From the IMG/VR virus record IMGVR_UViG_3300028743_000008, positions 1 to 52,965 of that record: DNA of 52,965 nt. One strand, 5' to 3'. Every line of letters begins with the position of its first letter. The stretch's first letter is position 1. This document shows positions 156-51,126 of the stretch, piece by piece. This stretch comes from a virus. Taxonomy: Duplodnaviria; Caudoviricetes. Made by a program: the position numbers and the translations under genes. The notes beneath the pieces are model-generated. The model was not told where the DNA came from. It saw nothing but the letters and a program-made list of their open reading frames with translations, and made no database searches.

Positions 156-1118
156 TCACCGTAAAAGTTCATCCTCTCGGTCGTCCAGGAACTTTTTGAG
201 TTTGGCCTGGGCCTCGGCTAGGTCCGTTTTTCGTTGGGCCGCTAGAGTCTGGGCTTTGGTTAAGGCGTCCGCCGCTTTATTATACTCCTTTTTAGCAAAG
301 GATACTTTTTCTACGGGCGTTAACTCAAGTTGCGCAACGTGTGTTGCATGCCTAACCGAATAGGTTTCTCGGACGCGTTCACCTATCGCATCAAGTGGAC
401 CGTCTTCGATTTGTAAGTCTGGTGCACAGATCACTTTACACTTGTATGTCTTAGCGGCGTTTGGGTCGTTACGGTCCAACTCTATGCGATAGAGCAACTT
501 CTTAACGCGCCTATCTGATATAATAGTGACTATACGTCCAGACATTAGGCCGTCCAGGGTAAGAAACTTAGCACGTCGGCCAACGTTTTGCATAACGACC
601 TCAACCTCCTTAGCGATAGTAGCGTCGTCCCAAACGAGGGCCGCAACCTCAGCGCGTACTCTACGCTTAGGTTCTTTTACGGGGGCTAATTCGGCCGTTA
701 CTTCTAATAGCTCAGAATCGTACACCTTCATAATCCTTCGTGTTTCGTCGCCTTCGTCCGTAATCTTAATGGCATACAGAATTCTGTTATTAGCACCGAT
801 TACGACGTCTACGATTACGCCCTTATGCCACGTGGCTTCATTAAAAGGAACGACGTTACACATGTGACCTATATTAGGCCTTAGGTCGTCCACAATGTCG
901 TTAACCTCGTCGTCTGACAACTTAGTATCTACGACCGCGGGGGCGTCGTTTTCTGATATTACACAAGGGGCGCGAAAGTTTCCCCCTTCGTCTAATTCGT
1001 GTGTCTGGGCCCGTGCATCTAAGACGGCCCTAATTTTGGGTTGCTCCTTTTCTGTAGCAACCTCAAATAATGCCTCAAGCTTTCTAGAGCTCAAGGCATT
1101 ATAATCTTTATTTGTCAT
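156..1118 (-). CDS. Hypothetical phage protein with two internal beta-rich repeats and a C-terminal coiled coil
   Basis: 320 aa ORF in the minus-strand operon; similar segments PNIGHMC..GVIVDV..RILYAIK and QNVGRRA..GRIVTI..KLLYRIE. Confidence 0.8.
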   Translation of the reverse strand: MTNKDYNALSSRKLEALFEVATEKEQPKIRAVLDARAQTHELDEGGNFRAPCVISENDAPAVVDTKLSDDEVNDIVDDLRPNIGHMCNVVPFNEATWHKGVIVDVVIGANNRILYAIKITDEGDETRRIMKVYDSELLEVTAELAPVKEPKRRVRAEVAALVWDDATIAKEVEVVMQNVGRRAKFLTLDGLMSGRIVTIISDRRVKKLLYRIELDRNDPNAAKTYKCKVICAPDLQIEDGPLDAIGERVRETYSVRHATHVAQLELTPVEKVSFAKKEYNKAADALTKAQTLAAQRKTDLAEAQAKLKKFLDDREDELLR

Positions 1119-1125
1119 TCTATAA

Positions 1126-1326
1126 TTAATTTAAGTAAATAATCAATAGGAAGATAAGGCCCGTAATCCAATAGAGTAGGGACTTAGTTACGGGCAACGC
1201 CTTAATGGGAAAAGGGCTGAGTACCAAAGCACACAGTATTATTCCGCCGTGTACGCCTATAATAAACAGTACCAATTTAAGCAGCTTGAGTACTATTTCG
1301 TTCTTTGCTAATTCAATTGCTAACAT
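1126..1326 (-). CDS. Small membrane protein (2 predicted TM helices)
   Basis: 66 aa with two hydrophobic stretches; tightly packed in the operon. Confidence 0.7.
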   Translation of the reverse strand: MLAIELAKNEIVLKLLKLVLFIIGVHGGIILCALVLSPFPIKALPVTKSLLYWITGLIFLLIIYLN

Positions 1327-1535
1327 GCTAGTTTTGTGTTAAGTGAATAAAACTGTATAGATAGTTCCGTCTTCATACGAAGATGGCAACCAAAGCCAAA
1401 GTCATGAGCCAAACGCCTAAGCCTCTGGGCGTCCGTTAAAGTGGATACGCCGCTTCCTGTAGCCCACAGATAATAAAAGCTATTGCCTCTACTATCTTTC
1501 GCGTCTTCTAATGCGATTACAAAATCTTCGTCCAT
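1320..1535 (-). CDS. Hypothetical protein
   Basis: 71 aa ORF tiling between neighbours. Confidence 0.6.
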   Translation of the reverse strand: MDEDFVIALEDAKDSRGNSFYYLWATGSGVSTLTDAQRLRRLAHDFGFGCHLRMKTELSIQFYSLNTKLAC

Positions 1536-1539
1536 AGTC

Positions 1540-1761
1540 TCAAGTATTAAGTTTCAACCTATCTTTTACACGGGCCTCCATGTCTGGGTCGCGAAAGATA
1601 AGACTTGCGACTACCATGTTCACAGCACTAGAGTATTGTATGCTTCTTAAGCATGTACCCACTTGTTTATTTGCTTTACAAGTGATGTATCCGTCGCATT
1701 GAAAGCACAGTGTACGTCTAGTAAATTTGCGTGCTATTTTTTGACTTTCTGGTATTTTCAT
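1540..1761 (-). CDS. Small Cys-containing hypothetical protein (likely start MKIPES)
   Basis: ATG overlaps the stop of the upstream ORF (ATGA); CFQC..C..C motif. Confidence 0.6.
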   Translation of the reverse strand: MKIPESQKIARKFTRRTLCFQCDGYITCKANKQVGTCLRSIQYSSAVNMVVASLIFRDPDMEARVKDRLKLNT

Positions 1762-2168
1762 AATCGTATGATTTGTTTGTTTTCTACGTCGTAAATTGCT
1801 AATTGCTTCCATATCACAGCCTCACTTAATGCGTGTGCTTTGTCACTTTCGTTTACAGATAGGTCAAAGAATACTTTGCCCGTGCTTTGATCATACCAGG
1901 AGCCGAGGTATAAAGGTTGACCAAAATAAGTTGTGCCTAATACGTCTACGTGTGACTTCACCCAGGCCGCGACGGCGTGTACATCTACTTTCGAAAGCGT
2001 CTCATACTCAAGTGTATGCTTCTTACCGCCTAAGGATACCATGTACCCCGTTACAGGTTGTTCTAAGTCTAAGTTATAAGAGCCGCCGTACTTTTGTTCT
2101 GACAATGAAATGGAAGCTATTAATGTAGCTGCTATTTCGTGACTCTTTTCAGTGTCTATAAAGTTCAT
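1758..2168 (-). CDS. Conserved-looking phage protein, possibly SAM-lyase-like fold
   Basis: YLGSWYD..GKVFFDLSV..DKAHAL..A..KQLAIYD pattern; ORF is solid, function is inference. Confidence 0.6.
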   Translation of the reverse strand: MNFIDTEKSHEIAATLIASISLSEQKYGGSYNLDLEQPVTGYMVSLGGKKHTLEYETLSKVDVHAVAAWVKSHVDVLGTTYFGQPLYLGSWYDQSTGKVFFDLSVNESDKAHALSEAVIWKQLAIYDVENKQIIRL

Positions 2169-2170
2169 AA

Positions 2171-2968
2171 TTATTTAGAATTATATATGTTATGTATTAA
2201 TGATATATCGCTTTCGAATAGTTCTGTAACTGCTATGTCGCTACAGGCATAGGCCGCGAAGTTACCAGCATGGTAAATACCTGTTACGTGTTTGAAATGC
2301 TTTTGTAATAAGCCTTCAAACTCTTTTATGTCGTAGCAGTATTCGCCCATGTCGACCAACACGTTTTGTTTCTTCTTTGCTATTTCGTCTTGAGTAAAAT
2401 ATTTGGACTTCCATAAATCGTCTTTTAAATTTTCATTCCTTTGCCACAGTTCCGTATCCTTATTGCTAAACTTTTCACAGAATATGCAAACGCCCGTATC
2501 TTCTACAGACGCTTTCAACTCAAGTATTTCAGGTTCACGAGTCTTTGTAAAGAACTGAAAGCCCAATAGCTCAAGCGCAATATCAAAGGTTATTACCTTT
2601 GTATCTATTTGATTTATTTGTTGGCCGCTTTCGTCCGTCCAGGAAGACATAAAGCCCCCTAAGTTATTGAACAGCCTAGGATACTTCATTTGCGGCGAAA
2701 TTTGTTTAGCAAGACTTATCATTTTAGGGCTACCATCTACATTAATATAGGAACCCTTAAAGCCATTGTCAAATAGAGTTTTGCCAAACAGGCCCGTAGA
2801 GCCGCATACATCTAGTATAGTTGCTTCGTAAAAGTGTTTGCGTATATTTGCCTGTAGTTCGGAAATAAAGGCCCCATACAAAGGTATGCTTTGGCGTACA
2901 TGTGTATCGAACTCACTAGCCATCTTATTAAAGAAAGCTTGTTTTATGGGTGTATTCTTAGTCTTCAT
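2171..2968 (-). CDS. CmoA-like (carboxy-SAM synthase family) class I SAM-dependent methyltransferase-fold protein
   Basis: FDTHVRQSIPLY, ILDVCGSTG, VDGSPKMI, FQF, CEKFS, EIAKKK and GNF parallel the E. coli CmoA motifs FPDMIQRSVPGY, YDLGCSLG, IDNSPAMI, LQF, SEKFS, EISQKR and FNF. Confidence 0.8.
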   Translation of the reverse strand: MKTKNTPIKQAFFNKMASEFDTHVRQSIPLYGAFISELQANIRKHFYEATILDVCGSTGLFGKTLFDNGFKGSYINVDGSPKMISLAKQISPQMKYPRLFNNLGGFMSSWTDESGQQINQIDTKVITFDIALELLGFQFFTKTREPEILELKASVEDTGVCIFCEKFSNKDTELWQRNENLKDDLWKSKYFTQDEIAKKKQNVLVDMGEYCYDIKEFEGLLQKHFKHVTGIYHAGNFAAYACSDIAVTELFESDISLIHNIYNSK

Positions 2969-3120
2969 GGTTGCGTCTTTTTTAAATAGTATAATGTATA
3001 TGTTCCGCCGTCGTTTGCGACCAGCAAAGAATTAGTAGAATCATATCTACCTTTACAAAAGGTGATCATGTTATAAACATTATCAAAGTCCTTACTACAT
3101 GAAAAATCTTCTTTCTTCAT
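2965..3120 (-). CDS. Small hypothetical protein (51 aa, MKKEDFSCSK...), absent from the ORF track
   Basis: Translated by hand; TGA stop overlaps the ATG of the CmoA-like gene (ATGA). Confidence 0.65.
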   Translation of the reverse strand: MKKEDFSCSKDFDNVYNMITFCKGRYDSTNSLLVANDGGTYTLYYLKKTQP

Positions 3121-3132
3121 AACCGTATGCGT

Positions 3133-3447
3133 TTAGTATCCTAGATATTGTAATATTGTGCAATTGGGTAAGCGTTCGCCGCTTGAATCGGTTACTTCAA
3201 ATTCGCCGTATTTGCCGCAAGTAAGCGTATCAAAAAGTTCAGGGTGGTTTGCTACATTATATACGCGTAAAAATGTAATAGGTTCGTCCGCTTTGCCGAA
3301 GGCGTATACCTGTAATCCGTGTTGCTCTAATAGCCCTTTTGTGGACCAAAGACTCTTTGCTATTCCTTCTTTTGTCAAAGGAGTTAGAAGGCCGCTATAA
3401 CTTTCGAACAGTATTTGCTTCTTTAATGTTTCTCTTATCGTCTCCAT
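3133..3447 (-). CDS. Hypothetical protein
   Basis: 104 aa ORF in the operon. Confidence 0.7.
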   Translation of the reverse strand: METIRETLKKQILFESYSGLLTPLTKEGIAKSLWSTKGLLEQHGLQVYAFGKADEPITFLRVYNVANHPELFDTLTCGKYGEFEVTDSSGERLPNCTILQYLGY

Positions 3448-3458
3448 ATCTATAGATA

Positions 3459-3770
3459 TTAATTATGAAGGCCCCACGTGTTATGCTCAATAAGAAGGGC
3501 ATTAAAAGTAATGTCGTTATTATAATCGTCTTGCGACATATCAAATAAACTCTCAGCGTCTTCGCACTCGTATAAGTACCAATCAAAAAAGCCTTGTATG
3601 GTATCGAATAACTTTACGTACCCGTTACCATCAAGGTAGGCAACACCCGTAAAGGGCATTCCGTTTGCGTCGACGCCCGTAGTTTCTGCTTTTAGAAACT
3701 CCATTTGTTCACCCTGTTTTTGCCCGTAAACCGTTTCGGTTATCGTTGCAAGTCTGCTAATGATCTTCAT
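3459..3770 (-). CDS. Acidic hypothetical protein
   Basis: 103 aa; first gene after the internal promoter at 3797-3828; D/E-rich C-terminal half. Confidence 0.7.
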   Translation of the reverse strand: MKIISRLATITETVYGQKQGEQMEFLKAETTGVDANGMPFTGVAYLDGNGYVKLFDTIQGFFDWYLYECEDAESLFDMSQDDYNNDITFNALLIEHNTWGLHN

Positions 3771-3796
3771 AATCTGTATGTATTAATTTGTAAGTA

Positions 3797-3828
3797 CAAA
3801 GATAACATGTTGTCCTTATACTTACAAA
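3797..3828 (-). promoter_or_regulatory. Bacteroidota primary-sigma promoter (internal early promoter)
   Basis: Minus strand reads TTTG (3828-3825), 20 nt spacer, TATCTTTG (3804-3797). Confidence 0.8.
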
Positions 3829-3847
3829 TGTTTAGCGTTAAATTATG

Positions 3848-4390
3848 CTAAGGCTTGAATAATTCTTTTAGCGCGTCTAATTTCAAAGCGGGTAACTGCT
3901 TTTCTTGCACCGTTATGAAGGGCAACGCCTCTGGGAACTCGGCTGTAACTCTTTCGAGTGTAGATAGAGCGCGAAGATTTTCGGTTAGTTCCTCGATTAA
4001 TTCCGCTTTACAATATCTTTTACCCTTTGGCCCGTCTAGCCTATTAGTTAGGTCCCACGCTAAATTGTAGTCGTTTAGTGATACCTCGTAGGAGCCGCTT
4101 TTGTAGGGGACACTTTTGTCTAAGTTAAGTTTAATACTTCGCCCTGGGCCGTGTATTAAGCCCCTAGGCGTTTCCGACGGCGGCACTACGTATAAGTGTT
4201 TCATACTGTTTTGACTAAAATAGGAGGGGTAAGCCACAAAGCAATTGCGTACATTTGCGGGGATGTACTTTTCGCTGATTCTGTAACCTAAGGCATGCAA
4301 GTTATCTTCTAAGACTTTTATACCTTCGTCCCAGATTTTGGATGCCATTTTCTCGGCTGTTTCCGTTGCCAACGCTTTTGTAATTTTCAT
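3848..4390 (-). CDS. Nmad5-like (nucleotide modification associated domain 5) protein
   Basis: MKITK start and the C-terminal LRALSTLERVTAEFPEALPFI motif typical of the family. Confidence 0.7.
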   Translation of the reverse strand: MKITKALATETAEKMASKIWDEGIKVLEDNLHALGYRISEKYIPANVRNCFVAYPSYFSQNSMKHLYVVPPSETPRGLIHGPGRSIKLNLDKSVPYKSGSYEVSLNDYNLAWDLTNRLDGPKGKRYCKAELIEELTENLRALSTLERVTAEFPEALPFITVQEKQLPALKLDALKELFKP

Positions 4391-4656
4391 AATGCGTAAT
4401 AATTTTTATCTGAGTACATAAATGTGTAAATTGGGTGTGCCCTTTGAACTTCATATACGCTTATTGCAGGCACTTTGAATAAGTCATAAGAGTAAGTAAT
4501 TGATACCTCTGTGTCTAGGGTATAGTCATACATTTGCACGCTCTGAGTCAATGCGTCAAAGCTATCTAAACGAAGGTCATGCTTTTCGAGTTGAGGCTCG
4601 GCTTGACATGCGACTAAAAGAATAGACATAACGATTACAGTTGCTAAATGTTTCAT
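4387..4656 (-). CDS. Small lipoprotein
   Basis: MKHLATVIVMSILLVA-C lipobox signal peptide. Confidence 0.7.
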   Translation of the reverse strand: MKHLATVIVMSILLVACQAEPQLEKHDLRLDSFDALTQSVQMYDYTLDTEVSITYSYDLFKVPAISVYEVQRAHPIYTFMYSDKNYYAL

Positions 4657-5111
4657 TTTATTTTGCTAATGCTGAGTACAGCGATTAAAGAATCTTCACC
4701 CTTAAGGTCCGTAGGCCTATTACATATAGCCATAAATCTAGTATTTGACGGGCCCTGGTTATTAGATACTAAATAGGCTTGCTTTGTTAGTAGCTGTAGG
4801 CAATGTTCCGTTTCTTCGCTAGATATGTGCATCATATAAAGTAAATCTTTTAGCTTCATATCTAGGCGGTTAACGGGGAACATCCGAAAGTTAACTAAGT
4901 CTTTCATGTCTTCGACGTCTACGCAATTCAAACAATTTGTGCACCTTTTACAGTCTATACAACCAAAGCAGTCTACACAATTTTCACACCTTACTAGGTC
5001 CGCGCTAGCCTGTAGAAAGTTAGTAAAGCTGTAGGCCTCAGCATTCCAACGGTTGCCGTACCTATCGACCCAATAACCCTTTTTATAATATACTGATTCG
5101 TGTTCGTTCAT
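4653..5111 (-). CDS. Cysteine-rich (CxxCxxC repeat) protein
   Basis: CENCVDCFGCIDCKRCTNCLNC, eight Cys at 3-residue spacing. Confidence 0.7.
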   Translation of the reverse strand: MNEHESVYYKKGYWVDRYGNRWNAEAYSFTNFLQASADLVRCENCVDCFGCIDCKRCTNCLNCVDVEDMKDLVNFRMFPVNRLDMKLKDLLYMMHISSEETEHCLQLLTKQAYLVSNNQGPSNTRFMAICNRPTDLKGEDSLIAVLSISKIK

Positions 5112-5608
5112 GGCATATCCTCCACTTTTACGTTATCATACCCCGCGGCCTTAAGATCCGCTTTGATATACTTAGTGAAACGACCTTTTTTAGTGTACTT
5201 ATGTAAATAAAACACGTTCGCCGTTGTATGACACCCCTCAAGAATAGAATAGCAGTCGTATTTCTCTGTGAGGTGCGAATAGTTATTTAGCAACACAATA
5301 AGAGTATCCCTTATGCCCTCGGTTCTAATTGCAATACGTACCGGTGCATTTTTGATCTTTTCGCCCTTCTCTACTAACTCCTTTGCCTGAATAGCATTTT
5401 GATCTTCTACGTAACGAGTCTCACAGGCCAACGCCCTTTGAAAGTCGTTTAGGAAGGTCAAGCAACTATTTTTTGTACCTGTGTGGATTACTTCGCCGTG
5501 AAGTTTGACATGTGAATAACCATTGTATTCTTGAGTCTCAAATGCAAAGTCCGTTGTTTGCTTTGCTTGTGCGCAAGTTGCGTCTAGTAATTTTTTTGTC
5601 CCTAACAT
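5108..5608 (-). CDS. Hypothetical protein
   Basis: 166 aa ORF, 4-nt overlap with the next gene. Confidence 0.7.
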   Translation of the reverse strand: MLGTKKLLDATCAQAKQTTDFAFETQEYNGYSHVKLHGEVIHTGTKNSCLTFLNDFQRALACETRYVEDQNAIQAKELVEKGEKIKNAPVRIAIRTEGIRDTLIVLLNNYSHLTEKYDCYSILEGCHTTANVFYLHKYTKKGRFTKYIKADLKAAGYDNVKVEDMP

Positions 5609-5620
5609 AATTGTATATCT

Positions 5621-5779
5621 TTATTTATTAATATTCTGTGCAAGTTTGATCTGAAAGGCTATGAACTTTTCAAAGTCTGAATAGTTTAGGTTCAAATACG
5701 CTTTGTTTATCACTCTATACCTCGTTTCGTGCGTCTTAGCTCTTTTGTAAGATGCCTTATAACTGTTTAATGTTGCCAT
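5621..5779 (-). CDS. Small basic protein (start MATLNSYK), paralog of 6098-6268
   Basis: ATG at 5779 follows the AATAAGATT leader; similarity to the neighbouring small ORF. Confidence 0.7.
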   Translation of the reverse strand: MATLNSYKASYKRAKTHETRYRVINKAYLNLNYSDFEKFIAFQIKLAQNINK

Positions 5780-5783
5780 AATC

Positions 5784-6110
5784 TTATTTATTAAGTGTTT
5801 CGTCTTTGTCAATCGTAATACCCCTTTTTGCGCATCTGTTTAACAGCATGCCTTTACGCATATAATACGGTGTGATTTGTTGCCAAAAACAAAGGTCGCC
5901 CGTGTTTACTCTTTCTATTACTGAGTAGCCCATTGTCTCGTGCTCAACTAAACGCGTATGTATACGTTTTGTCTCTGCTAACCTTTTAAGCTCGTAGGCC
6001 TCAGCACCTTCTATTATTTCGTTTGCTATTCTATTATCCCAGGTCTGTTTTCTACCTTCTTTGGGCATGTTAAGTGCTACGTTCCGTTTTGCTTTATTTA
6101 ATGTCTCCAT
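5784..6110 (-). CDS. Hypothetical protein
   Basis: 108 aa ORF in the operon. Confidence 0.7.
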   Translation of the reverse strand: METLNKAKRNVALNMPKEGRKQTWDNRIANEIIEGAEAYELKRLAETKRIHTRLVEHETMGYSVIERVNTGDLCFWQQITPYYMRKGMLLNRCAKRGITIDKDETLNK

Positions 6111-6268
6111 AGTCGTATTATTAGTTTGGTTTTATAGGCAATAAATTCTCTAAATTCTGAATCAGAAAGATATAAGTATGCACGGTTTCTAATCTTTATA
6201 GTTCGCCTGATATTGTTGCGTATTAGAGCTATTCTGAATGCCTGTTTGTAATTATCCAATGTTTTCAT
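6098..6268 (-). CDS. Small basic protein (56 aa, MKTLDNYKQAF...), absent from the ORF track
   Basis: Translated by hand; AATAAAGATT leader; similar to 5621-5779. Confidence 0.7.
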   Translation of the reverse strand: MKTLDNYKQAFRIALIRNNIRRTIKIRNRAYLYLSDSEFREFIAYKTKLIIRLWRH

Positions 6269-6273
6269 AATCT

Positions 6274-6792
6274 TTATTTATTAAGTCCCTGTAATGCGTA
6301 ATACTCGTTCTGTATCTTATGTAGGCCGTTGTCCCACGCTTCGTTGTCTGCTAACTCGGTCCTGGGATTAACGTATAGAACTATGCCTAATAACGAGTAA
6401 TCTAAGAGTAGTATATCGTCCGTACCGTTCAGGCACTTCTTTACGTACGTATCGAGTTCGTCGGGTGTGAGTACTCGGCCCGTACCTAATATGGGTGTGA
6501 CATGTACCGTTACTTCTTTGCCTTTCTGTAGTATGGTGTAGGATACACTGAACACAGTTGCGTAACCGTTACCCGCGTTTGACCAACCCTTTGAGGTTAG
6601 TTGCTTAGCGTCGATACAGGGGCGTTCGGTCAACTTAACGTTGCCTAATTGCCAATAGTTCACCATGCTAGAGGTGATGCGTGCCAACTTACTTTGTCTG
6701 ATAAGTCCATTGATAGCGTAACCAATAATGGATGCAAGGAATAGCGCACATAATGCAAGTGCAATTCTTTTGATAAGTTCTTTCGTCTTCAT
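6274..6792 (-). CDS. Membrane-anchored hypothetical protein
   Basis: Basic N-terminus followed by hydrophobic IALALCALFLASIIGYAI. Confidence 0.75.
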   Translation of the reverse strand: MKTKELIKRIALALCALFLASIIGYAINGLIRQSKLARITSSMVNYWQLGNVKLTERPCIDAKQLTSKGWSNAGNGYATVFSVSYTILQKGKEVTVHVTPILGTGRVLTPDELDTYVKKCLNGTDDILLLDYSLLGIVLYVNPRTELADNEAWDNGLHKIQNEYYALQGLNK

Positions 6793-27547: not shown

Positions 27548-30500
27548 ATGATTTTAGTAAGCAATAATATATCACCCATACCTTTTTATGAGGACCTATC
27601 CTTTCAGGAGCACAATAAAGATTATGCCTACGGAGAGATATTTAGGTTAGTAATGCCCTCTAATTATATTCTCCCTTTTCAAGTTGTTATTGACCCTCTT
27701 ATAACAACGGTTTCTAAGATCGAGATCATTAACTTTGAGACAAATGATATTCAGGATATTACAGCTTTAATGACTGCTAGGGGGCTAACAGTTAAACAGA
27801 TGGGCGATTATAACATATTGAAATATGTGGGCGCCGATTTTGCGGGATCATTTGAAGTGGGAACTTATTATCTGAAAGTAACATTTACCCAGGGGAGTGT
27901 TCTGTACTCCGATCTGATAAATCTAGTGGATTCGGTAGATCAGTATATAAAGATAACTTACTATAACTCATTCAGTATAGGCTTTACACAGGGAACGATA
28001 GATTTCACAGAGAACTTTAAGTTCGTCGTATATCTCGATTCCCAGGTAGGAAAGCCCGAATATGATTTCGAGGAGGCTTCTCAGGCTCGAGGCGGATATA
28101 CCTTTATCGAGAGTCAGAGTAGCGTAAAGAAGCACAAGTTCATTTGCGTTGCTCCCGAGTATTTATGCGACGCCCTAAGAATAGTCAGACTTTGCGATAA
28201 TAAGGAAGTATACAGTAGGGGATTGACTTACTCCCCGACGCTCTTTAATATAGAAGTGAAATGGCTGGATCAAGGATACTTAGCCGAGGTAGACGCCGAT
28301 TTCACAACGGATACAAACATATCATCCATAGCTGGATTTTATGGGATGGCTAGCGGCTCGGATGAGCAAGGCGGCGGGGGGACAGGCGGCGACATAACTA
28401 TAGTAAAAACGACGGACTTAACTACGGCTTTAACTAATGACAATGTCTTTTCTTCTCTCAGGTCTTTGCAAGAAATCGCGAATAAATCGGTGTCTAGGTT
28501 AAACGATGATACCGTCAATGGAAATATATCCTTTGCTAAAGACATATATGTCTCGGGAAAGGCTACAGCTAGTGAGATTGATGCACCGGAGGTAAAGGGG
28601 ATGAACGGAACGTTTGCTAATTTGCTTAAGGCTGCGGCATGTACGATCGTTGGATTAGCTACGCTAGGGAGCGTCGAAGCCACTAATCTTCATTCCATAT
28701 CGGGAACGGTAGATAGTTTATACGGAAATACGGGAACTTTCCTAGGCGCTCTTTCTTCTGCGGGAATAGAGAGTTCTAAGGGCGGTTTATTCTACGGACA
28801 GTATTCTCCTTTCCCCTCGGGGTTAGGGACTTACGTGGCCGATTATGTATCACCAACATACGGGGCTCGTGTATTAGCCTATGATGGAGTCAACTACCAG
28901 AAATTATCTCTAGGACGATTAATAGGGTCCAATTTTCAGTTGAACCTAAATGCCGATGGGACGTCCAATTTTGGTGACGATTTAACGGTTTCAGGTTCAT
29001 TAACTGTGCAAGGTATAGAGAGTTCCGAGGGCGGGATATTCTACGGACAGTATCCTTCATTTCCTTTAGGTAAGGGTACTTATGTGGCTAACTATGTTTC
29101 ATCTCAGTATGGCGCACGCGTGTTGGCCTATAATGGCGCAGCCTATCAGGACCTGGCTCTTGGAGCTATGCCCACGACTAACGTCTTTTCGGAGGTGCTA
29201 AGAGCAAACGGAAATATTAATTTTGGGTACGGTATAGGAACTAGTAATTATACTAGCCAATTAACCGGTTGGAATCTAGGGGCGGACGGAAAGTTAGATG
29301 TTCGAAAAATATATTCTGACGAGATAAGCACTCAGGCGTTTACTGCACAAGTAAGTCAGGCTTTAGCAGGTTCTGATTTTCTCACAAAATCGGTAAGCAA
29401 ACTATCTTACAATTTTGTGATTCCGAGTTCTGTAGGCGGATCGTCTCAATTAATCGTAGACGATTTAGAGGGATTCCCTGCAACTCAATGTTTTGCGAAT
29501 GGCGACTATATTAGATTGCGCCCTATCAATAAGAGTGCTGGGCTAGTCATAGGCAATGCATACGGAACGATAGTGCTTGATACAACATACGGAACTAATG
29601 GCTTTCTAAACGGTACACAGGCGTATACTTTTACTGTGACTTCGCTAAGTAACGCATCAGGAATTACAGTATTCAAGGGCTCAGAAGTTTTAGATTACGG
29701 CATTTCGGGGAGTGGCTTGATCAAAAGGACTACATTAGATAGCGCGGGTAGTCCCTATATGGATATTGACACTTGGGTTACTGATCCGTCCATTTCTACC
29801 AATTATACAGTACATGCGCGATTGGGCAATCTTAGCGGTATTGCTAACTGTAGTGGATATGGATTATATTCTAACAAAGCATTCTTGACGGAAAGTATTC
29901 TTGTAGGTGATCTTACAAAGGCGGGTAACTACATGGAATACGCAGGCAACGCCCTGAATATACATGCAAATCTATATGTGACAGGTGGCAACGCAGCTAC
30001 TAATGATTCGGTTAATACCGCTATAAATAATGTTCAAATAGGTGGAACTAATTTATTTTCAGGGACAAAAGATTTAGGCGGATTAGGTACTCATGGTACG
30101 TATACAAATAATGATTATCTTGGATTCACCTCGGTAAGCTATAATGATTGGACTAGTTATTTTGATATATGCTATCAAAATGCAGCTATTAATTTTAACA
30201 TAAATCAGTATTATACCCTTTCTTTTTATGCTAAATCTACAGTGGAAGGTGACACAATACTCTCTTATTTCTACCCAAATTTAAATGATCAGATTGGTGA
30301 CGGGCATACACCAACAAACTTAACTACAGAATGGAAAAGGTATTCAATAACGTGGTATAGGCAGTACAGCGATGCTGTTGCTGTAATTGTTGCCCGTATG
30401 TACCCGGGGCATGGTAGTGGCACTGTTTCTGTATGCGGAGTGAAATTAGAGGAAGGAACAAAGGCAACTTCATGGTCACTTGCCCCATCAGAAACGCCAA

Positions 30501-34682: not shown

Positions 34683-34916
34683 ATGAAAAAGTTATACGAG
34701 GCCCTTGTGGCCAAATGGAAGGCCGAAACACCTATTTTATATAAATGGGTCATTAAGATTTCGGCTACGATTGCGGGCCTTACCGTTGCGGTTAATGAGG
34801 CCCTGGACTTAAATGGAGCAGTTAAACCTGATTGGTTCGTATCCTCCTACTTTTATATCATAGGGATCACTGCGGGAATCGCATTTTTATCTAAATTCAC
34901 CGAAAAAAAGCAATGA
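34683..34916 (+). CDS. Holin (2 TM helices)
   Basis: 77 aa with two TM helices, adjacent to the endolysin. Confidence 0.7.
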   Translation: MKKLYEALVAKWKAETPILYKWVIKISATIAGLTVAVNEALDLNGAVKPDWFVSSYFYIIGITAGIAFLSKFTEKKQ

Positions 34917-35569
34917 GTATGATGACATGGAAAAATATCAAAGCGCTTCTTCTGATAGTTGGAGCGCTGTTAATTATCTTTCTTTTGTACTTTAGCATAA
35001 ATACTTACAAAGAGAAAAACCGATTACAGAAGAATCAATCGGCCCTCTTAGTCGGTATGCAGAGGTACAAGATATTGGATAGTTTGAATGCCGCTAAAGT
35101 AGGGGTATTGACTCTTTCTATTGGGGAGATAAAGGCTAATAAAAAGGAGGACCTAAAAGACATTACGAAACTAGGTATTAGTAACAATGATCTAGTTGCC
35201 TACTCAAAGGCCGAGTTACAGCAATCCTATAATATTAATTCTAAGTTACGTGATTCACTAATTCGGGTAAAGGCAAACGTTAAGGGCTCTCTGATCCACG
35301 ATACGACTACGCAGTACATAGACACTTGTAAAACGTTTAATTATAAGTCTAAATGGTTTGACGCTCAGGGTCTGATATGTAAAGATAATATATCCCTTCG
35401 AGCGCAATCACGAGACTCCCTTGTATCAGTGGAGCATACGATCCCAAAAAAGATATGGTTTATACGACTCCCGAAATGTATATTTGGTTATAAATCATTA
35501 CAATATGACATCTATTCGAAAAACCCTAATACATCAATTATGGGCATCGAATACGTGAAAACAAAATAA
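34913..35569 (+). CDS. Spanin-like lysis protein (DUF6549-like)
   Basis: N-terminal TM helix, RLQKNQSALL, C-terminal SKNPNT; last gene of the lysis cassette. Confidence 0.6.
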   Translation: MSMMTWKNIKALLLIVGALLIIFLLYFSINTYKEKNRLQKNQSALLVGMQRYKILDSLNAAKVGVLTLSIGEIKANKKEDLKDITKLGISNNDLVAYSKAELQQSYNINSKLRDSLIRVKANVKGSLIHDTTTQYIDTCKTFNYKSKWFDAQGLICKDNISLRAQSRDSLVSVEHTIPKKIWFIRLPKCIFGYKSLQYDIYSKNPNTSIMGIEYVKTK

Positions 35570-45887: not shown

Positions 45888-46409
45888 ATGGACTACTTTA
45901 AAATATTCAGTGATTACACAAGGCTAAAGCTTTCCGGGGACACCCTTTGGCGAAGCAATATGGTTAAGGCCGTTGCGGGCCATGTGTCTAGCGCTACCGT
46001 AGATAATTATCTCAGGCTGGCGTTACAAGCCGGGTATATAAAGAAACTGTCCCACGGCAAATATCAGCTAATCAAGCCCCTCTCGAAGGATATGACACGT
46101 AGCACACTTCGCTTCGAAGCAAGAAACGGCAAGCCGCAAGTTAATTATTACGGCAAGGTGATCGAGTTCTTAAAGAGTAAAAGACTAGGTGAAGCGTTCA
46201 CCTTTGCAGAACTCAGCCATTTGGAGCCCGTGCCTAAGAGCACAATACGACACTACATAAGCCTTCTTAATACAAGAGGCTATATTATTAAACTGTACAA
46301 TACGACCTATCGAGTCGAGAAACTAATAACGGATAAACGCTTCGGAGTTCGTAAGATCAGAAGCAAAGAAGTAATATATAAACATAATAAAAGAGTAGAT
46401 CATGAATAA
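45888..46409 (+). CDS. Tandem winged-helix DNA-binding protein
   Basis: Two similar units: SATVDNYLRLALQAGYIKKLSHGKYQLIK and KSTIRHYISLLNTRGYIIKLYNTTYRVEK. Confidence 0.7.
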   Translation: MDYFKIFSDYTRLKLSGDTLWRSNMVKAVAGHVSSATVDNYLRLALQAGYIKKLSHGKYQLIKPLSKDMTRSTLRFEARNGKPQVNYYGKVIEFLKSKRLGEAFTFAELSHLEPVPKSTIRHYISLLNTRGYIIKLYNTTYRVEKLITDKRFGVRKIRSKEVIYKHNKRVDHE

Positions 46410-46788
46410 AGAAGAATTACTAAAGAAGGAAGTTGGCGGAAGTCATTATAACACTCTGGGCATGCAGCCCGTGGAGTTATGCTCTGAGGCGGGATTTGAT
46501 TTCTTTCAAGGGAGCGTATTAAAGTATGTAACTCGCCACAAAACTAAGAACGGAGCAGAGGATATTAAGAAGGCGATTCACTTCGCCGAGTTCGGAGATT
46601 CGATGTCCTATAATAGCGCCGATGGCGGCCTTTCAAACGGGGATTACCAATTTCTAGCGGGAGAATACACCCGAGCTAATCGGATGGGACCTCTTGAATC
46701 TACAGTAGTGCGCAATCTTTATGAGCGCGAATTTCCTGCCATTAAATGCCTCCTGGAACAAATACTTAAAAGAGATTATCATGAGTAA
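46402..46788 (+). CDS. DUF3310 protein (T7 gp1.7 nucleotide-kinase-like family)
   Basis: VGGSHY..QPVE..FFQGSVLKYVTRHKTKNGAEDIKKA. Confidence 0.85.
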   Translation: MNKEELLKKEVGGSHYNTLGMQPVELCSEAGFDFFQGSVLKYVTRHKTKNGAEDIKKAIHFAEFGDSMSYNSADGGLSNGDYQFLAGEYTRANRMGPLESTVVRNLYEREFPAIKCLLEQILKRDYHE

Positions 46789-47024: not shown

Positions 47025-48374
47025 ATGAACTCAAAAGATAAAGAACTAGTGGCAGAGATTAAGGCCGAAATTAGGGAAACGCAGATGTACAGTAACGTGT
47101 ACGATGCTCTACGAGGAAAATACTATGGCTACATGCGTCTGGAATTTAGCAACGGTAGAAGGGACTTAAGCGCCTACCTAGACGAGATTAAAACAAAGAA
47201 AGAAGACATATTACAGAAGATGGCTGAGTTACAGAAGAAGGCCGAGTTAAAGGACGTAGCCAAAGATATTGACAAATCCCTTCTCGCACACTATCTATTT
47301 GATCACGGTATGACAGAGATTGTGATACGAGAGGGCCAGGGAAGAATAACTCCGGGGGAAAGCCTATCAAATACTAAAATAGCTCCGAACTATTCAAACT
47401 TAGTGCAATTGGTATGTCCTAATATGGCTTTATTTCTTACGAAGGAAGGAGCGCCTTTGAACGCAAGACTCGCCGAGATTTGTAAGGGCATCGCTACTAT
47501 TATTAGTAAACATTCGCATTCCAAAGCCTGGGAACTCGAGGCGTATTTGCTCAAGGAATTGGAGTGCTACGCTTCTCCCGAGAGAATAAAGCGTCTAAGG
47601 GCTGGATTAGAAACCCTTAAGGATGAATATAGGTCAAAAAAGGATATAGATTTTCGTGAGTTTCACGAGAAAGAGTTTGATATGATAATAGATGCGTTGT
47701 CTTATGATGAATTAGAGGGCTCGATCATTGTGTACCAGGACCTTCGAGATTTTGTGGGAGCGAGCATATTGCTGATGCTTACCCCGATTGGGACGCCCAA
47801 AAATAAAGAGTGCGAGATTATATGCAAGCAATTAGCCGCGTTAAGGGATATGCCCATAGGCAAAAGGTATAACGCTAGTTACGGCTATCTTATGATGTTC
47901 TTACGTGCGAACAGATCGAAAGCACTAGCGGATAAAATCGCAGGTACGATACGGGGCATGGACGGCGAATCTGATTTTGAACGAGGGATCAAAGGCGATG
48001 TGCATTCAAGGGCTCTAGGGCTTATCATAGAGGCTATAGTTAATAGCACAAAAGATTCTAATGCGAAAAGCGAGGGGTCCTTATGGGATGATCTGATGCG
48101 TTATGTTAGCGGCATGATTACCACAAGCGAAGTAAACGACAGGATAGCCCAGGAAGTAACGGGGATATACGATCCTCTAAGGTCCGAGAAAACAATGACC
48201 TGGTATGAGGTAAAGGCCAAATTGATTGAGTTGAAAAAAGCTAATTCCCCTGACCCCGAAAAGCGGGAGGAAGAAGACGCACGAACTGCCGCTTCTAAGA
48301 AGTCCCTAGTCGATCCCGAAGAATTAAGAAAAGCAATTGATACATTCAAAAAGGTCTTGGGGGGATTACTATGA
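47025..48374 (+). CDS. Large helical hypothetical protein with internal repeats
   Basis: 449 aa; LFLTKEGAPLN..EICKGIA resembles LMLTPIGTPKN..IICKQLA. Confidence 0.75.
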   Translation: MNSKDKELVAEIKAEIRETQMYSNVYDALRGKYYGYMRLEFSNGRRDLSAYLDEIKTKKEDILQKMAELQKKAELKDVAKDIDKSLLAHYLFDHGMTEIVIREGQGRITPGESLSNTKIAPNYSNLVQLVCPNMALFLTKEGAPLNARLAEICKGIATIISKHSHSKAWELEAYLLKELECYASPERIKRLRAGLETLKDEYRSKKDIDFREFHEKEFDMIIDALSYDELEGSIIVYQDLRDFVGASILLMLTPIGTPKNKECEIICKQLAALRDMPIGKRYNASYGYLMMFLRANRSKALADKIAGTIRGMDGESDFERGIKGDVHSRALGLIIEAIVNSTKDSNAKSEGSLWDDLMRYVSGMITTSEVNDRIAQEVTGIYDPLRSEKTMTWYEVKAKLIELKKANSPDPEKREEEDARTAASKKSLVDPEELRKAIDTFKKVLGGLL

Positions 48375-48589
48375 CAATATTAATTAAAATACTTGCGGCC
48401 TTTATGGATGTAGTAAGTGACAGAGGGCTAGAGATGTTCTTGATCTTTATCGCGGCCGCCTTCTTTACTATGTTAATTGACATACAAAAAGATAAATGGT
48501 ACACTAGGATACCGGCCAAATGGTTTCTATTCATAGGCGTACTAATGTTGATCCTAAAAATGGTCTCGTGGATATATCACATAGTATAA
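48371..48589 (+). CDS. Small membrane protein
   Basis: 72 aa with 2 TM helices. Confidence 0.7.
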   Translation: MTILIKILAAFMDVVSDRGLEMFLIFIAAAFFTMLIDIQKDKWYTRIPAKWFLFIGVLMLILKMVSWIYHIV

Positions 48590-49116
48590 GGAGAATATGT
48601 GTGGGCCTTGTTTTCCTAACGTTGGCCCCTACGGTTCACGCCTCAGACAAATGGTCGGAGCTAATAAGTGCCCTGGAATTTGTCGAAAGCGGGAACAGGA
48701 TCAACGCTATAGGAAAGCGTAACGATACGGGAGTTCTTCAATTAACACCCGTATATGTCAGGGAGGTGAACAGGATATTAGAGAAGAAGGTATACAAACT
48801 ATCCGATAGGCTGTCCGAGAGAAAGTCTATAGAGATGTTCAATATCTACCAGGCGAAGCATAATGCCTGCCGTAATATCCTCAGAGCCATAAGACTTCAT
48901 AATCCGAAGGCCCCAATGCAATACAGACTTAAGATATTAAAAGCAATAGAAAACAATGAAAAAAGTATGGCACTATCTAGGGTATTTATACTACCCCGTG
49001 TTTATTACCTTTGTTGCACTTCATATAATAGCTCGCTTTGTTCTAGCGATCACCTATTTTGGAATGCTGGAAGCCCGAAAGGGGAAAGATGTTTTAAAAC
49101 ATATTTGGTAAGATGA
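48586..49116 (+). CDS. Secreted lytic transglycosylase / lysozyme-like protein; start and stop anomalous
   Basis: Signal-peptide-like RRICVGLVFLTLAPTVHA; FVESG catalytic Glu, GVLQL and RLHN motifs. Confidence 0.6.
   Translation: MRRICVGLVFLTLAPTVHASDKWSELISALEFVESGNRINAIGKRNDTGVLQLTPVYVREVNRILEKKVYKLSDRLSERKSIEMFNIYQAKHNACRNILRAIRLHNPKAPMQYRLKILKAIENNEKSMALSRVFILPRVYYLCCTSYNSSLCSSDHLFWNAGSPKGERCFKTYLVR
48956..49111 (+). CDS. Small membrane protein (51 aa, MKKVWHYLGYLYYPVF...), absent from the ORF track
   Basis: Translated by hand; A-rich leader; stop lies 1 nt before the next ATG; nested in the tail of the transglycosylase ORF. Confidence 0.65.
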   Translation: MKKVWHYLGYLYYPVFITFVALHIIARFVLAITYFGMLEARKGKDVLKHIW

Positions 49117-49943
49117 TAAGAGACGCAGAAACTATCCGAAAGATACAAGAGAGGGAAATGATGGAAGGCAGCCTCACTCCCGAGGAGACGATGGCCGATA
49201 AGGCCTGGGGAACTCAGATCGCTTTTGATAAGGATGAGAACGGCAACGTTATAAAGGACGAAAAAGGCAAGAGTCATTTTCGCTTGATAGCCGCTACGCA
49301 TAGTCAACTCGTAGAGAAGATGGCTAGGCGAAATAAGGCGGGCGTTGAGGCTAACAGATTAAAGGCGAGGGAGCGAGAGATAAGAAGAATAGAGATTCAG
49401 AGGGAGGCTATTAACAGTAAGCTTATTGACATTAACGATGCCATTCCCGTAGAGCATATCCGACTTCTTATAAAGCTGCTTACCCAGGATCAAGCGGACG
49501 CGATGCAGAAGAACGCTGACTACATTAATGTCAGGCTAAAGCGTTTGCTATGTCCCCTTATTCCCCGGTCGCTTAAGAGGTCAATGATTCTCTATCCTAA
49601 GTCTGTGGTCAAACATCCGGGTTTCATTTATCAAGCAAGTAAAGAGTATGGGCAAGGCCGAATATTTTCGGCTACCCCGGACATCGTTTACTACTTTGAG
49701 CAGGGAACGGAGATGAAAATATTAAGAGACACTTATACTAATCAGCTTTTCTCTATTGACAAAGCCGTGGTACAGTACTGTCTCAATAAGGAAAGATTAT
49801 CAGAACGGGAAATACGGTACGCGATCCAATTAAAAACGCTTAAAACGTACTTCACCCTCGTGAAGAAAAACCCGGTCTGGTATGACATATTAGTTCAAGA
49901 ATTAATACGAAGAAGAAATGAAGCAAATAAGTGCACTCCTTGA
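49113..49943 (+). CDS. Hypothetical protein
   Basis: 276 aa ORF. Confidence 0.8.
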   Translation: MIRDAETIRKIQEREMMEGSLTPEETMADKAWGTQIAFDKDENGNVIKDEKGKSHFRLIAATHSQLVEKMARRNKAGVEANRLKAREREIRRIEIQREAINSKLIDINDAIPVEHIRLLIKLLTQDQADAMQKNADYINVRLKRLLCPLIPRSLKRSMILYPKSVVKHPGFIYQASKEYGQGRIFSATPDIVYYFEQGTEMKILRDTYTNQLFSIDKAVVQYCLNKERLSEREIRYAIQLKTLKTYFTLVKKNPVWYDILVQELIRRRNEANKCTP

Positions 49944-50508: not shown

Positions 50509-51126
50509 ATGAACGATACTAAAGACGAAAACTTCATAGGTAACCAAACCGCAAAAAAGGGTAGGGGAATGACCCCGCAGTTTATAGACCTGAACGGTCG
50601 AAGAGACAAGGCCTACGAGAATGCTAAGAATCACGGCTTTCACGAGGGCGGTCAATCTGAGGAAACGTATAAAGCCCTTGTCATAAGCGAATTATGCGAA
50701 GCAATGGAAGCCCATAGACATGGAAAGTGGGCAAAGGCGACGGAGTTTGATCAGCGTCTACACGACGCCAGGGAAATCGCCGAAAAAGATAAGGACCTTC
50801 TCTTTGAGGGCCTTATCAAAGATTCGGTAGAGGATGAATTAGCAGACACTGTCATCCGTATACTTGATGTGGCGGGAAAAAGAAACGAAGCCATCGTATT
50901 ACGTCGCGACATGATAGCCGAGGACAAAAGGCACGTATATAATCATACTGTACCCGAATTATTATACGGCTGCATGTGCCGAGTAGTTCAGTCCTGGGCT
51001 TTGAGGGATCAATTAGAATGGATATGGGCTATTTGCGAAGTTATAGGACCCGACATACTTCACTTTGTTACACTAAAAATGGACTACAATAGCGGTAGGC
51101 CCTATCATCATGGAAAAGCATACTAA
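50509..51126 (+). CDS. MazG-like nucleotide pyrophosphohydrolase
   Basis: ISELCEAMEAHR, VEDELADTVIRILD and KMDYNSGRPYHHGKAY. Confidence 0.85.
   Translation: MNDTKDENFIGNQTAKKGRGMTPQFIDLNGRRDKAYENAKNHGFHEGGQSEETYKALVISELCEAMEAHRHGKWAKATEFDQRLHDAREIAEKDKDLLFEGLIKDSVEDELADTVIRILDVAGKRNEAIVLRRDMIAEDKRHVYNHTVPELLYGCMCRVVQSWALRDQLEWIWAICEVIGPDILHFVTLKMDYNSGRPYHHGKAY

Follow-up and report, generated by a model that had tools for sequence, protein, structure and literature searches.

Two adjacent genes of a siphovirus-like phage with a Bacteroidota host, one encoding a CmoA-like class-I SAM-dependent enzyme of 265 aa (hereafter MT) and the other a protein of 136 aa, belong to a recurrent and hitherto undescribed two-gene module. 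We give an even chance to the reading that the pair is a module directed at S-adenosylmethionine (SAM), carried in a leftward and presumably early operon. The analysis suggests that it probably attacks the SAM of the host to disarm its defences. The initial annotation had proposed a CmoA-like enzyme coupled to a SAM-lyase-like protein; the coupling of a CmoA-like enzyme with a protein of SAM-lyase type was retained, but the homology of the 136-aa protein with the SAMase of phage T3 was not.

The window, i.e. the whole stretch of DNA analysed, is a record of 52,965 bp with a CheckV completeness of 100%, the portal of which is 59% identical to portals of Bacteroides fragilis phages. MT (2171..2968, minus strand) and the 136-aa gene (1758..2168, minus strand) lie in a block of small leftward ORFs (156-6792), divergent with respect to the structural and replication genes, which run rightward. 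They are 2 nt apart, as previously reported, the junction reading TAA-tt-ATG, and ATGA overlaps flank the pair on either side: the stop of a 51-aa ORF (2965..3120, minus strand) overlaps the start of MT, and the ATG of a Cys-rich 73-aa ORF (1540..1761, minus strand) overlaps the stop of the 136-aa gene. This coupling of genes was counted as support for the module. Both flanking ORFs, candidate members of the module, have no assigned function, the former being devoid of Pfam or PHROG matches and the latter of Pfam matches. The operon had been described as early, a timing that is presumed. A promoter and terminator scan gave a result no better than shuffles, and a DNA search of the gene-pair region against phages returned no match.

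MT had been said to follow CmoA motifs from end to end, which holds for the extent of the similarity but not for its level. The match with TIGR00740 (E 8.6e-8) runs over nearly the full length, from residues 11-239 to model positions 16-234 of 239, with a score of 32.1 bits that is below the curated NCBIfam cut-off of 193.3 and thus not at equivalog level; the score with PRK15451 (16.6) is also below its cut-off of 285. Among PHROG families, phrog_4752 matches at E 4.7e-16, and a profile of the MT family aligns end to end with the CmoA structures 4iwn, 4gek and 1im8 (E 4.5e-8 to 8.3e-8). Sequence comparison thereby identifies the 265-aa protein as a genuine yet distant CmoA relative. Its AF2 model (pLDDT 91.7) superposes on 1im8, 4gek and 4iwn with VIA Z of 22.2, 22.0 and 22.0, respectively, 216-219 residues being aligned at an rmsd of 2.6-2.8 with the C-terminal helical lid included. 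With the CmoA of E. coli (4GEK/4IWN) and YecO of H. influenzae (1IM8), the protein thus shares the class-I fold over ~217 residues and the SAM-binding Asp residues: Asp53, Ser57 and Asp78 are invariant in the 38 relatives aligned and correspond to Asp62, Ser66 and Asp89 of CmoA motifs I/II. In CmoA, Arg199 forms a salt bridge with the carboxymethyl group of carboxy-SAM (Byrne 2013, PMC3663124). Lys200 of the 265-aa protein aligns with this residue in the HMM alignment, and the family has Lys or Arg there in 37/38 relatives (K21/R16/E1), position 199 being Lys in 38/38. The branch formed by Maribacter phage Panino and locus L001 reads Gly at the Arg199-equivalent position (by eye from the sequences), which was counted against the SAM-directed module.

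Substantial differences with CmoA were also found. The identity with the 265-aa protein is only 16-18%, and the family displays a β-hairpin insertion of ~15 residues, bearing a near-invariant Trp110 and an Asp-Glu, as well as an invariant Glu133 which adjoins the Asn132 position of CmoA. As structural neighbours of the model, CysG, BelI (9FC*, 9G0K) and MM_2633 (3DTN) tie with CmoA within 1 Z (Z 20.8-21.5; best Foldseek E-values of 2.4e-11 to 5e-10 for this group), but the profile covers the N-terminal half only in their case. Among enzymes with the class-I methyltransferase fold, MT is a divergent member of this CmoA / CysG-BelI / MM_2633 subgroup, whose characterised representatives, CmoA and CysG/BelI, work on small molecules. 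Titles and abstracts on CysG and BelI present them as SAM- and metal-dependent O-methyltransferases acting in natural-product pathways. A role in tRNA modification, in line with the PHROG name “tRNA methyltransferase”, was rejected because this label is inherited from CmoA; the window contains no tRNA gene and no match to a CmoB-type family.

A CmoA-type enzyme in a phage could alternatively make carboxy-SAM (Cx-SAM) for a carboxymethyltransferase involved in nucleic-acid hypermodification. Such a pathway has been described: according to PMC12783734, phage CmoA homologs, encoded “typically alongside CmoX”, supply Cx-SAM to this C5-methyltransferase homolog, and the CmoA-CmoX-CmoY pathway, as in Synechococcus phage S-B43, makes 5-carboxymethylcytosine. 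The basic residue at the Arg199 position of MT fits with this function, and the transferase may be host-encoded or of an unrecognised type. We nevertheless consider it very unlikely here. As initially annotated, neither a DNA methyltransferase nor CmoB was found: PF00145, PF08003, PF01555 and PF02086 each have 0 matches in the complete 52,965-bp record, and PF00145 has 0 matches in the complete genome of Panino, so that no C5-methyltransferase homolog was found in either of them. Moreover, the enzyme family is far more divergent from canonical CmoA (32 bits against the cut-off of 193) than the homologs of that pathway, its partner is SAM-lyase-like, and tblastn against 50,697 phage records returned Panino as the sole match. 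The MT family occurs in phage early operons and in virion polyproteins, with no CmoB or CmoX partner found. The lack of a detected transferase that could use carboxy-SAM in this complete genome was counted in favour of the SAM-directed module.

The 136-aa protein is a small α/β protein from a large phage family without a name, which comprises 240 representatives (at 50% identity) at E<=1e-3. It has no Pfam (searched to E<=1), NCBIfam or PDB sequence match, its family profile returned nothing meaningful against PDB and Pfam, and a word-index search retrieved only the protein itself. The ESM Atlas search gave unnamed viral clusters only, and the 23 matches in BFVD are all uncharacterised or multi-domain phage proteins. 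Two “giant” matches (P0064 and P0069) were dropped from the family as false positives, being cadherin-repeat proteins. The AF2 model has a pLDDT of 93.2, and its C-terminal ~95 residues are predicted to adopt a β-α-β-β-α-β order that fits the PII-like, ferredoxin-type α-β sandwich of SAM lyases. Among 80 members, near-invariant residues are W91 (80/80), G89 (79/80), D102 (D76/E4) and Q122 (Q72/E8). At the N-terminus, the family also has ~38 additional residues and a set of invariant positions of its own (Gly28, Pro38 and Gly41).

A parallel between this protein and a segment of T3 SAMase had been drawn by eye. The T3 segment given is correct, as verified by translation of T3 gene 0.3, and the 136-aa protein does contain the motifs listed for it (GSW at 89-91, DLSV at 102-105, DKAHAL at 109-114 and KQLAIY at 121-126), but the direct similarity between the two proteins is not above chance. 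The hhalign probability of the 80-sequence family is 1.1% against T3 SAMase and 0.2% against a 19-sequence alignment of the T3 type, and PF23780 matched 0/80 members, even at E<=10. Homology with T3 SAMase cannot be demonstrated at this level of comparison. The proposed fold comparison was more favourable, although weak: in an unbiased search of 48,161 chains with the model, the SAM lyase Svi3-3 (6zm9_A) ranked 2, with a Z of 3.6, an rmsd of 3.2 and 18% identity over 72 aligned residues (39-136 of the model and 12-125 of the chain). T3 SAMase (7ock) ranked 44 in this search, where the best Z overall was only 4.1. Ferredoxin-like folds are common, and Foldseek against the PDB returned nothing at E<=0.001 (E 0.4). 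A second look within the 1000 matches of Foldseek gave 4qvu as the top one (Z 3.5), with eIF4E at 2.1-2.8 and 7ock at 2.7; 6zm9 is missing from this comparison because it was not among these 1000.

Members of the SAM-lyase family are homotrimers whose active sites lie between subunits, and cleave SAM into MTA and homoserine lactone. The SAM lyases (T3 gp0.3 and Svi3-3, 6ZM9; PF23780) and SAM-AMP lyases (9GAD/9GAB) are small early phage proteins, as the 136-aa protein presumably is, and it would share the predicted β-α-β-β-α-β core with them. Gly56, Glu69 and Gln104 are reported as strictly conserved in SAM lyases, in addition to Tyr58 (Guo 2021); these residues and Ser71 contact SAM. The common pattern comprises Gly-x-aromatic, an acid 11 positions further, a Ser and finally a Gln that precedes the last strands. 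G89-x-W91 and D102 at +11 match G56-x-Y58 and E69 at +11 of Svi3-3 exactly, and the Asp-x-Ser is placed like Glu69/Ser71, making the Gly-aromatic-acid-Ser spacing identical; Q122 follows D102 in the order of Svi3-3 (Q104 after E69), but closer. Conversely, Asp stands for the catalytic Glu of lyases and Trp for Tyr, which counts against a lyase reading. The 136-aa protein also differs by the lack of an acid after the Gln, an acid-to-Gln distance of 20 residues instead of 26-35 with a shorter second helix region, and the extra N-terminal ~38 residues. The link of this protein with SAM lyases is partly supported, by three indirect lines: its fold rank, its residue pattern and its association with MT.

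This association was assessed at the 8 loci with close MT homologs (41-54% identity), the set read for neighbour genes. A SAM-lyase-like small gene is present on the same strand at 6 of them, including the window. Furthermore, a domain of the 136-aa family is fused N-terminal to a CmoA-like domain in two proteins, P0017 (393 aa; E 4.6e-16 with the family HMM) and P0019 (386 aa; E 1.1e-15). At the five other positive loci, the partner is provided by a second small family (~107 aa), the gene of which precedes the CmoA-like gene on the same strand, either directly (L004, L006), separated from MT by one small ORF (L007, L008) or 1.6 kb upstream (L002, HMM E 1.7e-6). Among 177,635 PDB sequences, the four best matches of a profile of this second family are 9gad (a SAM-AMP lyase), 9lqd (a SAM lyase), 9gab and 6zm9 (Svi3-3), with E 0.02-0.026. 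The alignment with Svi3-3 places Gly, Tyr/Trp, Glu69 and Gln104-Glu105 in register, and PF23780 matches below threshold (E 0.0079 and 0.032; 28-bit cut-off). These PDB and Pfam matches are marginal, the profile being built from only 6 sequences, several of which come from related contigs. The neighbours of the second family in the Atlas are DUF3574. Its hhalign probabilities, none of them significant, are 0.3% against the T3 type and 0.7-2.2% against the 136-aa family. In these comparisons with the 136-aa and T3 families, hhalign chose short local motifs, Gly-x-Trp and Gln-acid-Cys-Val; one alternative register paired the GG-x-S of the 136-aa family with the FGG of the second family.

The linkage is recurrent when viewed from MT (6/8 loci and two fusions), but facultative when viewed from the 136-aa family. 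Locus L005 has MT and no small partner gene, MT is missing from the 2.5 kb around L114 and L115, and it was found within 3.5 kb at 0/23 of the IMG/VR loci of the 136-aa family retrieved with a 12-sequence alignment. At 14 of these 23 loci, the domain lies within ORFs of 473-2153 aa, and its partners in large proteins are Phage_portal, Zeta_toxin, GNAT, DUF7178 and ART-PolyVal. Similarly, the MT domain constitutes residues 377-621 of a CDS of 1829 aa located among the structural genes of Panino, and is found inside a 767-aa ORF at L001. Both domains thus occur as solo genes and within giant multi-domain phage proteins with disparate partners, as do the domains of polyvalent proteins; in the window, both are solo operon genes. 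Their presence in giant virion proteins fits with proteins that act as infection begins (Iyer 2017, PMC5512222). The main text of that publication contains 0 occurrences of “CmoA”, “SAMase” and “adenosylmethionine”.

The same publication stresses that polyvalent proteins combine domains with disparate activities. Fusion in such proteins does not imply a common pathway, which counts against a module. The two proteins could be independent effectors which are merely clustered: an unrelated polyvalent module of 136 aa, e.g. one that binds nucleotides or second messengers or inhibits a host protein, next to an ordinary small-molecule or protein methyltransferase, brought together only by the free clustering and fusion of early anti-host genes. 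We regard this as possible, if on the unlikely side. It would account for the members of the 136-aa family mostly found without MT or joined to unrelated domains such as Zeta_toxin, GNAT, ART-PolyVal and portal, for the lack of a significant sequence link between this family and lyases, for fold matches none of which exceeds Z 4.1, eIF4E and others reaching similar values, and for the tie of MT with the CysG/BelI O-methyltransferases. It does not fit well with the recurrence of a small protein with Gly-x-Tyr/Trp, acid and Gln at 6/8 MT loci and in two fusions, nor with the fact that two different small families supply this partner, one of which matches solved SAM lyases best. Moreover, SAM lyase had been proposed beforehand, and came second among the 48,161 chains of a blind search.

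The fusions P0017 and P0019 and the translational coupling are also consistent with a complex, in which the 136-aa protein would not be a catalyst but a PII-like subunit of the CmoA-like enzyme, binding SAM or regulating, or else its chaperone, and would control or feed the activity of this enzyme. SAM lyases have a PII-like fold, the classical members of which are ligand-sensing regulators (PMC7877911, PMC12255297), and the replacement of the Glu and Tyr of lyases by Asp and Trp agrees with this reading. Nonetheless, we consider it quite unlikely. Most members of the 136-aa family occur without MT, and MT occurs without the 136-aa domain at L005 and in the giant protein of Panino.

Returning to a pair directed at SAM, we infer its ligand, chemistry, timing and target as follows. 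Shortly after infection, both proteins would bind SAM. The CmoA-like enzyme would convert it into carboxy-SAM or another derivative or, alternatively, make SAH by methylating an abundant metabolite, and the 136-aa protein would cleave or sequester SAM or a conjugate such as SAM-AMP. Their joint effect would be to lower SAM and raise inhibitory analogues, with the subsequent failure of type I/III restriction, BREX and type III CRISPR systems signalling through SAM-AMP. That a SAM lyase should accompany an enzyme that uses SAM is a mechanistic oddity, unless consuming this metabolite is all that either of them does. In a stronger and rather unlikely version, the 136-aa family would be an unrecognised, highly divergent branch of SAM lyases or SAM-AMP lyases, forming with the CmoA-like enzyme a two-enzyme counter-defence deployed as early genes or packed in the virion. 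It would destroy SAM or SAM-AMP and turn SAM into an analogue, such as carboxy-SAM, that poisons SAM-dependent immunity, and the immunity targeted in Bacteroidota would include SAM-AMP-signalling type III CRISPR, a Cmr/CorA system of this kind being described in B. fragilis (PMC12255297).

Phages classically counter SAM-dependent restriction with SAM lyases, which have more recently been linked with BREX and with CRISPR signalling through SAM-AMP. If true, the coupling of a protein of SAM-lyase type with a CmoA-like enzyme would represent a second, chemically different attack on one metabolite. It would also bear directly on how phage CmoA activity relates to SAM-dependent defence: the authors of the 2025 study of CmoA and CmoX (PMC12783734) ask whether the depletion of SAM by CmoA has an effect on defences such as SAM-AMP signalling. 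Finally, it would provide a first clue to the function of a very large family of “hypothetical” phage proteins and of a domain found in injected polyvalent proteins.

The genome is complete (52,965 bp, CheckV 100%). Its rightward (+) genes encode the terminase, the portal, capsid and tail proteins, and a replication set of Gp2.5-like SSB, family-A DNA polymerase and primase-helicase; a block of small ORFs (156-6792) runs leftward (-). Its portal shows 59% identity with portals of Bacteroides fragilis phages and lower identity with those of Parabacteroides, Flavobacterium and Croceibacter phages, pointing to a probable host among the Bacteroidota. The gene pair proposed in the initial annotation is present in the leftward block as described: a CmoA-like ORF (265 aa, 2171..2968, -) and the ORF of a 136-aa protein from an unnamed phage family (1758..2168, -), joined by the sequence TAA-tt-ATG. 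A 51-aa ORF overlaps the start of the former through ATGA, and the stop of the latter shares bases with the ATG that opens a 73-aa Cys-rich ORF, the four forming a translationally coupled string. Judging from gene position, the block would be expressed early; a consensus promoter scan of the window was uninformative. The same block encodes a 152-aa protein (4653-5111, -) in which Cys-x-x-Cys repeats follow one another (CxxCxDCxGCxDCxRCxNCxNC), matching phrog_15341, of unknown function (E 3.4e-14). On the plus strand, three consecutive ORFs of 449, 198 and 276 aa (47025-48374, 48520-49116 and 49113-49943), 3' of the replication genes, had no PHROG or Pfam match, and ordinary phage accessory genes encode a MazG-like pyrophosphatase (50509-51126; phrog_9236, E 1.1e-41), a DUF3310 protein (46402-46788) and a DUF6549 protein (34913-35569). 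Apart from this pyrophosphatase, no nucleotide-modification gene was recognised in the window.

The claim that the 265-aa protein follows CmoA motifs end to end holds as a distant family resemblance but not as orthology: CmoA TIGR00740, its best NCBIfam model (E 8.6e-8), aligns over nearly the whole length (protein 11-239, model 16-234 of 239) but scores only 32 bits where the cut-off is 193. Pfam returned generic methyltransferase matches, all sub-threshold, and PHROGs phrog_4752, “tRNA methyltransferase” (E 4.7e-16). A family profile from 38 relatives (38-54% identity, 34 invariant columns) matches the CmoA structures 4iwn, 4gek and 1im8 end to end (E 4.5e-8 to 8.3e-8), and MM_2633 (3dtn) and CysG/BelI in the N-terminal half only. 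The AF2 model (pLDDT 91.7) superposes best on 1im8, 4gek and 4iwn (Z 22.2, 22.0 and 22.0; 216-219 residues aligned, rmsd 2.6-2.8), tied within one Z unit with CysG (21.1-21.5), 3dtn (21.4) and BelI (20.8), after which Z drops to 18.4 or less; Foldseek was concordant. Asp53, Ser57 and Asp78, invariant in the 38 relatives, correspond in the alignment to SAM-binding positions among the residues listed in PMC3663124. According to the same source, CmoA Arg199 forms a salt bridge with the carboxymethyl group and defines the CmoA group; the aligned position 200 is Lys in 21 relatives, Arg in 16 and Glu in one, next to an invariant Lys199. Sequence comparison thus places the protein as a distant relative of the CmoA family rather than a CmoA ortholog. 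CmoA carboxylates SAM using prephenate (PMC10491745), and natural-product pathways employ CysG and BelI as O-methyltransferases that depend on SAM and metal, so that the characterised members of this subgroup act on small molecules; MM_2633 is a putative methyltransferase only.

The known phage role of CmoA, as described in PMC12783734, is to provide carboxy-SAM to the C5-methyltransferase homolog CmoX, generating 5-carboxymethylcytosine in DNA, and a supply of cofactor for hypermodification could be envisaged on this model. However, the transferase of that pathway is missing here: in agreement with the initial report of no partner DNA methyltransferase or CmoB, the complete window genome gave no hit to PF00145, PF08003, PF01555 or PF02086, nor did PF00145 match anything in the complete Maribacter phage Panino genome, which encodes a related domain. 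We regard this explanation as very unlikely.

The 136-aa protein had no sequence match in Pfam, NCBIfam or PDB and matches phrog_17808, of unknown function (E 5.5e-4), while its matches in the ESM Atlas and BFVD are unnamed viral proteins only. HMMER, run exhaustively over 1.84 billion representatives, defined a family of 240 proteins (E<=1e-3), most of 115-140 aa, whose profile and members match no recurring Pfam family or PDB sequence. Two long proteins from the representative search, P0064 (1833 aa) and P0069 (2811 aa), were discarded as false positives, being cadherin-repeat proteins with repeated matches confined to a 40-residue stretch. Across 80 aligned members, G28, G41 and W91 are invariant and P38, V44, G89, D102, A113, Q122, A124 and D127 nearly so.

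The proposed likeness of this protein to T3 SAMase was not borne out by direct tests, since hhalign gave a probability of 1.1% against the translated T3 gene and 0.2% against 19 T3-type sequences, and Foldseek of the AF2 model (pLDDT 93.2) against PDB gave no match at E<=0.001, with T3 SAMase (7ock_L) at rank 40 (E 0.4). A broader link to SAM lyases is nevertheless suggested by fold and residue pattern. In VIA, a fold search of 48,161 representative chains independent of Foldseek, the Svi3-3 SAM lyase (6zm9_A) ranks second (Z 3.6, rmsd 3.2, 72 residues aligned at 18% identity, model 39-136 against chain 12-125) and 7ock 44th. All Z values are low (maximum 4.1), so the modelled fold appears to be without a clear solved relative, but such a rank for a family named beforehand is unlikely by chance. 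Active SAM lyases are reported to be strictly conserved only at Gly56, Glu69 and Gln104, with Tyr58 packing on the sulfonium and Ser71 contacting the ribose (Guo et al., PMC7877911). In sequence, the pattern G89-x-W91, D102-x-S104 and Q122 follows the order Gly56/Tyr58/Glu69/Ser71/Gln104, with the same aromatic-to-acid distance (11 residues), and Q122 falls after the second helix and before the next strand, the location of the “B-loop” Gln of SAM lyases; position 102 is acidic and position 122 Q or E in 80/80 sequences. Comparative evidence from related loci points the same way, but the window's own small protein remains weakly tied to SAM lyases.

This locus evidence includes two fusions, P0017 (393 aa) and P0019 (386 aa), in which an N-terminal region of ~120 residues matching the small-family HMM (E 4.6e-16 and 1.1e-15) and carrying G-G-W, an Asp at +11 and a Gln spaced as expected precedes the CmoA-like domain. 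Among eight loci with close CmoA-like homologs (the window and L002-L008), a gene of ~107 aa from a second small family lies just upstream in L004 (incomplete at the contig end), L006 (625-945), L007 (277-600) and L008 (691-1011), one small ORF intervening in the last two. In L002 a member (258-563; HMM E 1.7e-6) is found 1.6 kb upstream on the same strand, the 98% identical L003 having too short a flank to tell, and L005 has no lyase-like partner. With several of the contigs related to one another, the loci reduce to approximately these independent lineages: the window, L002/3, L004, L006-8, L005 and the fusion pair, all but L005 with a lyase-like partner. Conversely, none of 23 small-family loci has the CmoA-like gene within 3.5 kb, nor do the second-family loci L114 (2468-2818) and L115 (1900-2262) within 2.5 kb. 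The linkage expected initially is thus recurrent but facultative, not obligatory. A regulatory-subunit role for the small protein seems unlikely.

The second small family (~105-120 aa; invariant FGG, G-x-W/Y and KQE motifs) matches PF23780 “S-AdoMet_lyase” below cut-off (E 0.0079 in L007, 0.032 in L006) and DUF3574 at E 0.021-0.028. With a six-sequence profile searched against 177,635 distinct PDB sequences, the top four matches (E 0.020-0.026) were 9gad SAM-AMP lyase, 9lqd SAM lyase, 9gab SAM-AMP lyase and 6zm9 Svi3-3, the alignment to Svi3-3 having Gly, Tyr/Trp, Glu69 and Gln104-Glu105 in register. As the Atlas groups this family with DUF3574 proteins (TM 0.93), DUF3574 may be a SAM-lyase relative.

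Both domains also occur in giant proteins. The small domain lies within ORFs of 473-2153 aa at 14/23 IMG/VR loci (solo at 9/23; near-duplicates L091/L092 and L093-L096 included), with Phage_portal, Zeta_toxin, GNAT and DUF7178, and ART-PolyVal in P0157, as partners, and BFVD adds “Zeta toxin” and “XkdF” proteins carrying it. This distribution is a signature of polyvalent proteins, predicted to be injected along with DNA (Iyer et al., PMC5512222). The 136-aa protein also has a weak tblastn match (H1/H2; E 7e-3, 33% identity, 73% of the query covered) at 29349-29615 of Synechococcus phage Syn5, inside the internal virion protein of gene 45, which again hints at carriage of the domain by ejected proteins. 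The CmoA-like domain forms residues 377-621 (HMM E 1.2e-41) of a 1829-aa CDS of Panino, PANI_CDS0069 (PP540027; L090:4897-10386), annotated “tRNA methyltransferase” amid virion structural genes; it is the sole recognisable part of this protein, which has no Pfam match, and a 767-aa ORF in L001 (IMG/VR) is 48% identical with the same layout. Two independent effectors brought together by polyvalent logic are a possible, though doubtful, reading.

The recurrent SAM-lyase-type neighbour, the fusions and the presence of both domains in predicted-injected proteins argue for a module that, as infection begins, would target the host SAM pool or a signal derived from SAM, a reading to which we give about an even chance. 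The product of the CmoA-like protein may be carboxy-SAM, or SAH together with some methylated metabolite, and the small protein may either cleave SAM, Cx-SAM or SAM-AMP or simply bind one of them, a division of labour that is itself conjectural. T3 SAMase defeats type I restriction and BREX through SAM cleavage, and the type III CRISPR signal, whose study began in B. fragilis, is acted on by SAM-AMP lyases belonging to the same family (PMC12255297).

SAM-targeting counter-defence is an already known kind of system. In the literature searched, SAM lyase and CmoA were not found treated together outside PMC12783734, where CmoA-mediated SAM depletion is raised solely as a future question, and neither CmoA nor SAMase comes up in the main text of Iyer 2017. 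Three features appear to be undescribed: the pairing, the CmoA-like domain within virion polyproteins, and the affinity that the small family of 240 representatives may have with lyases. The putative SAM-directed pair is of note chiefly for its recurrence and its direct testability.
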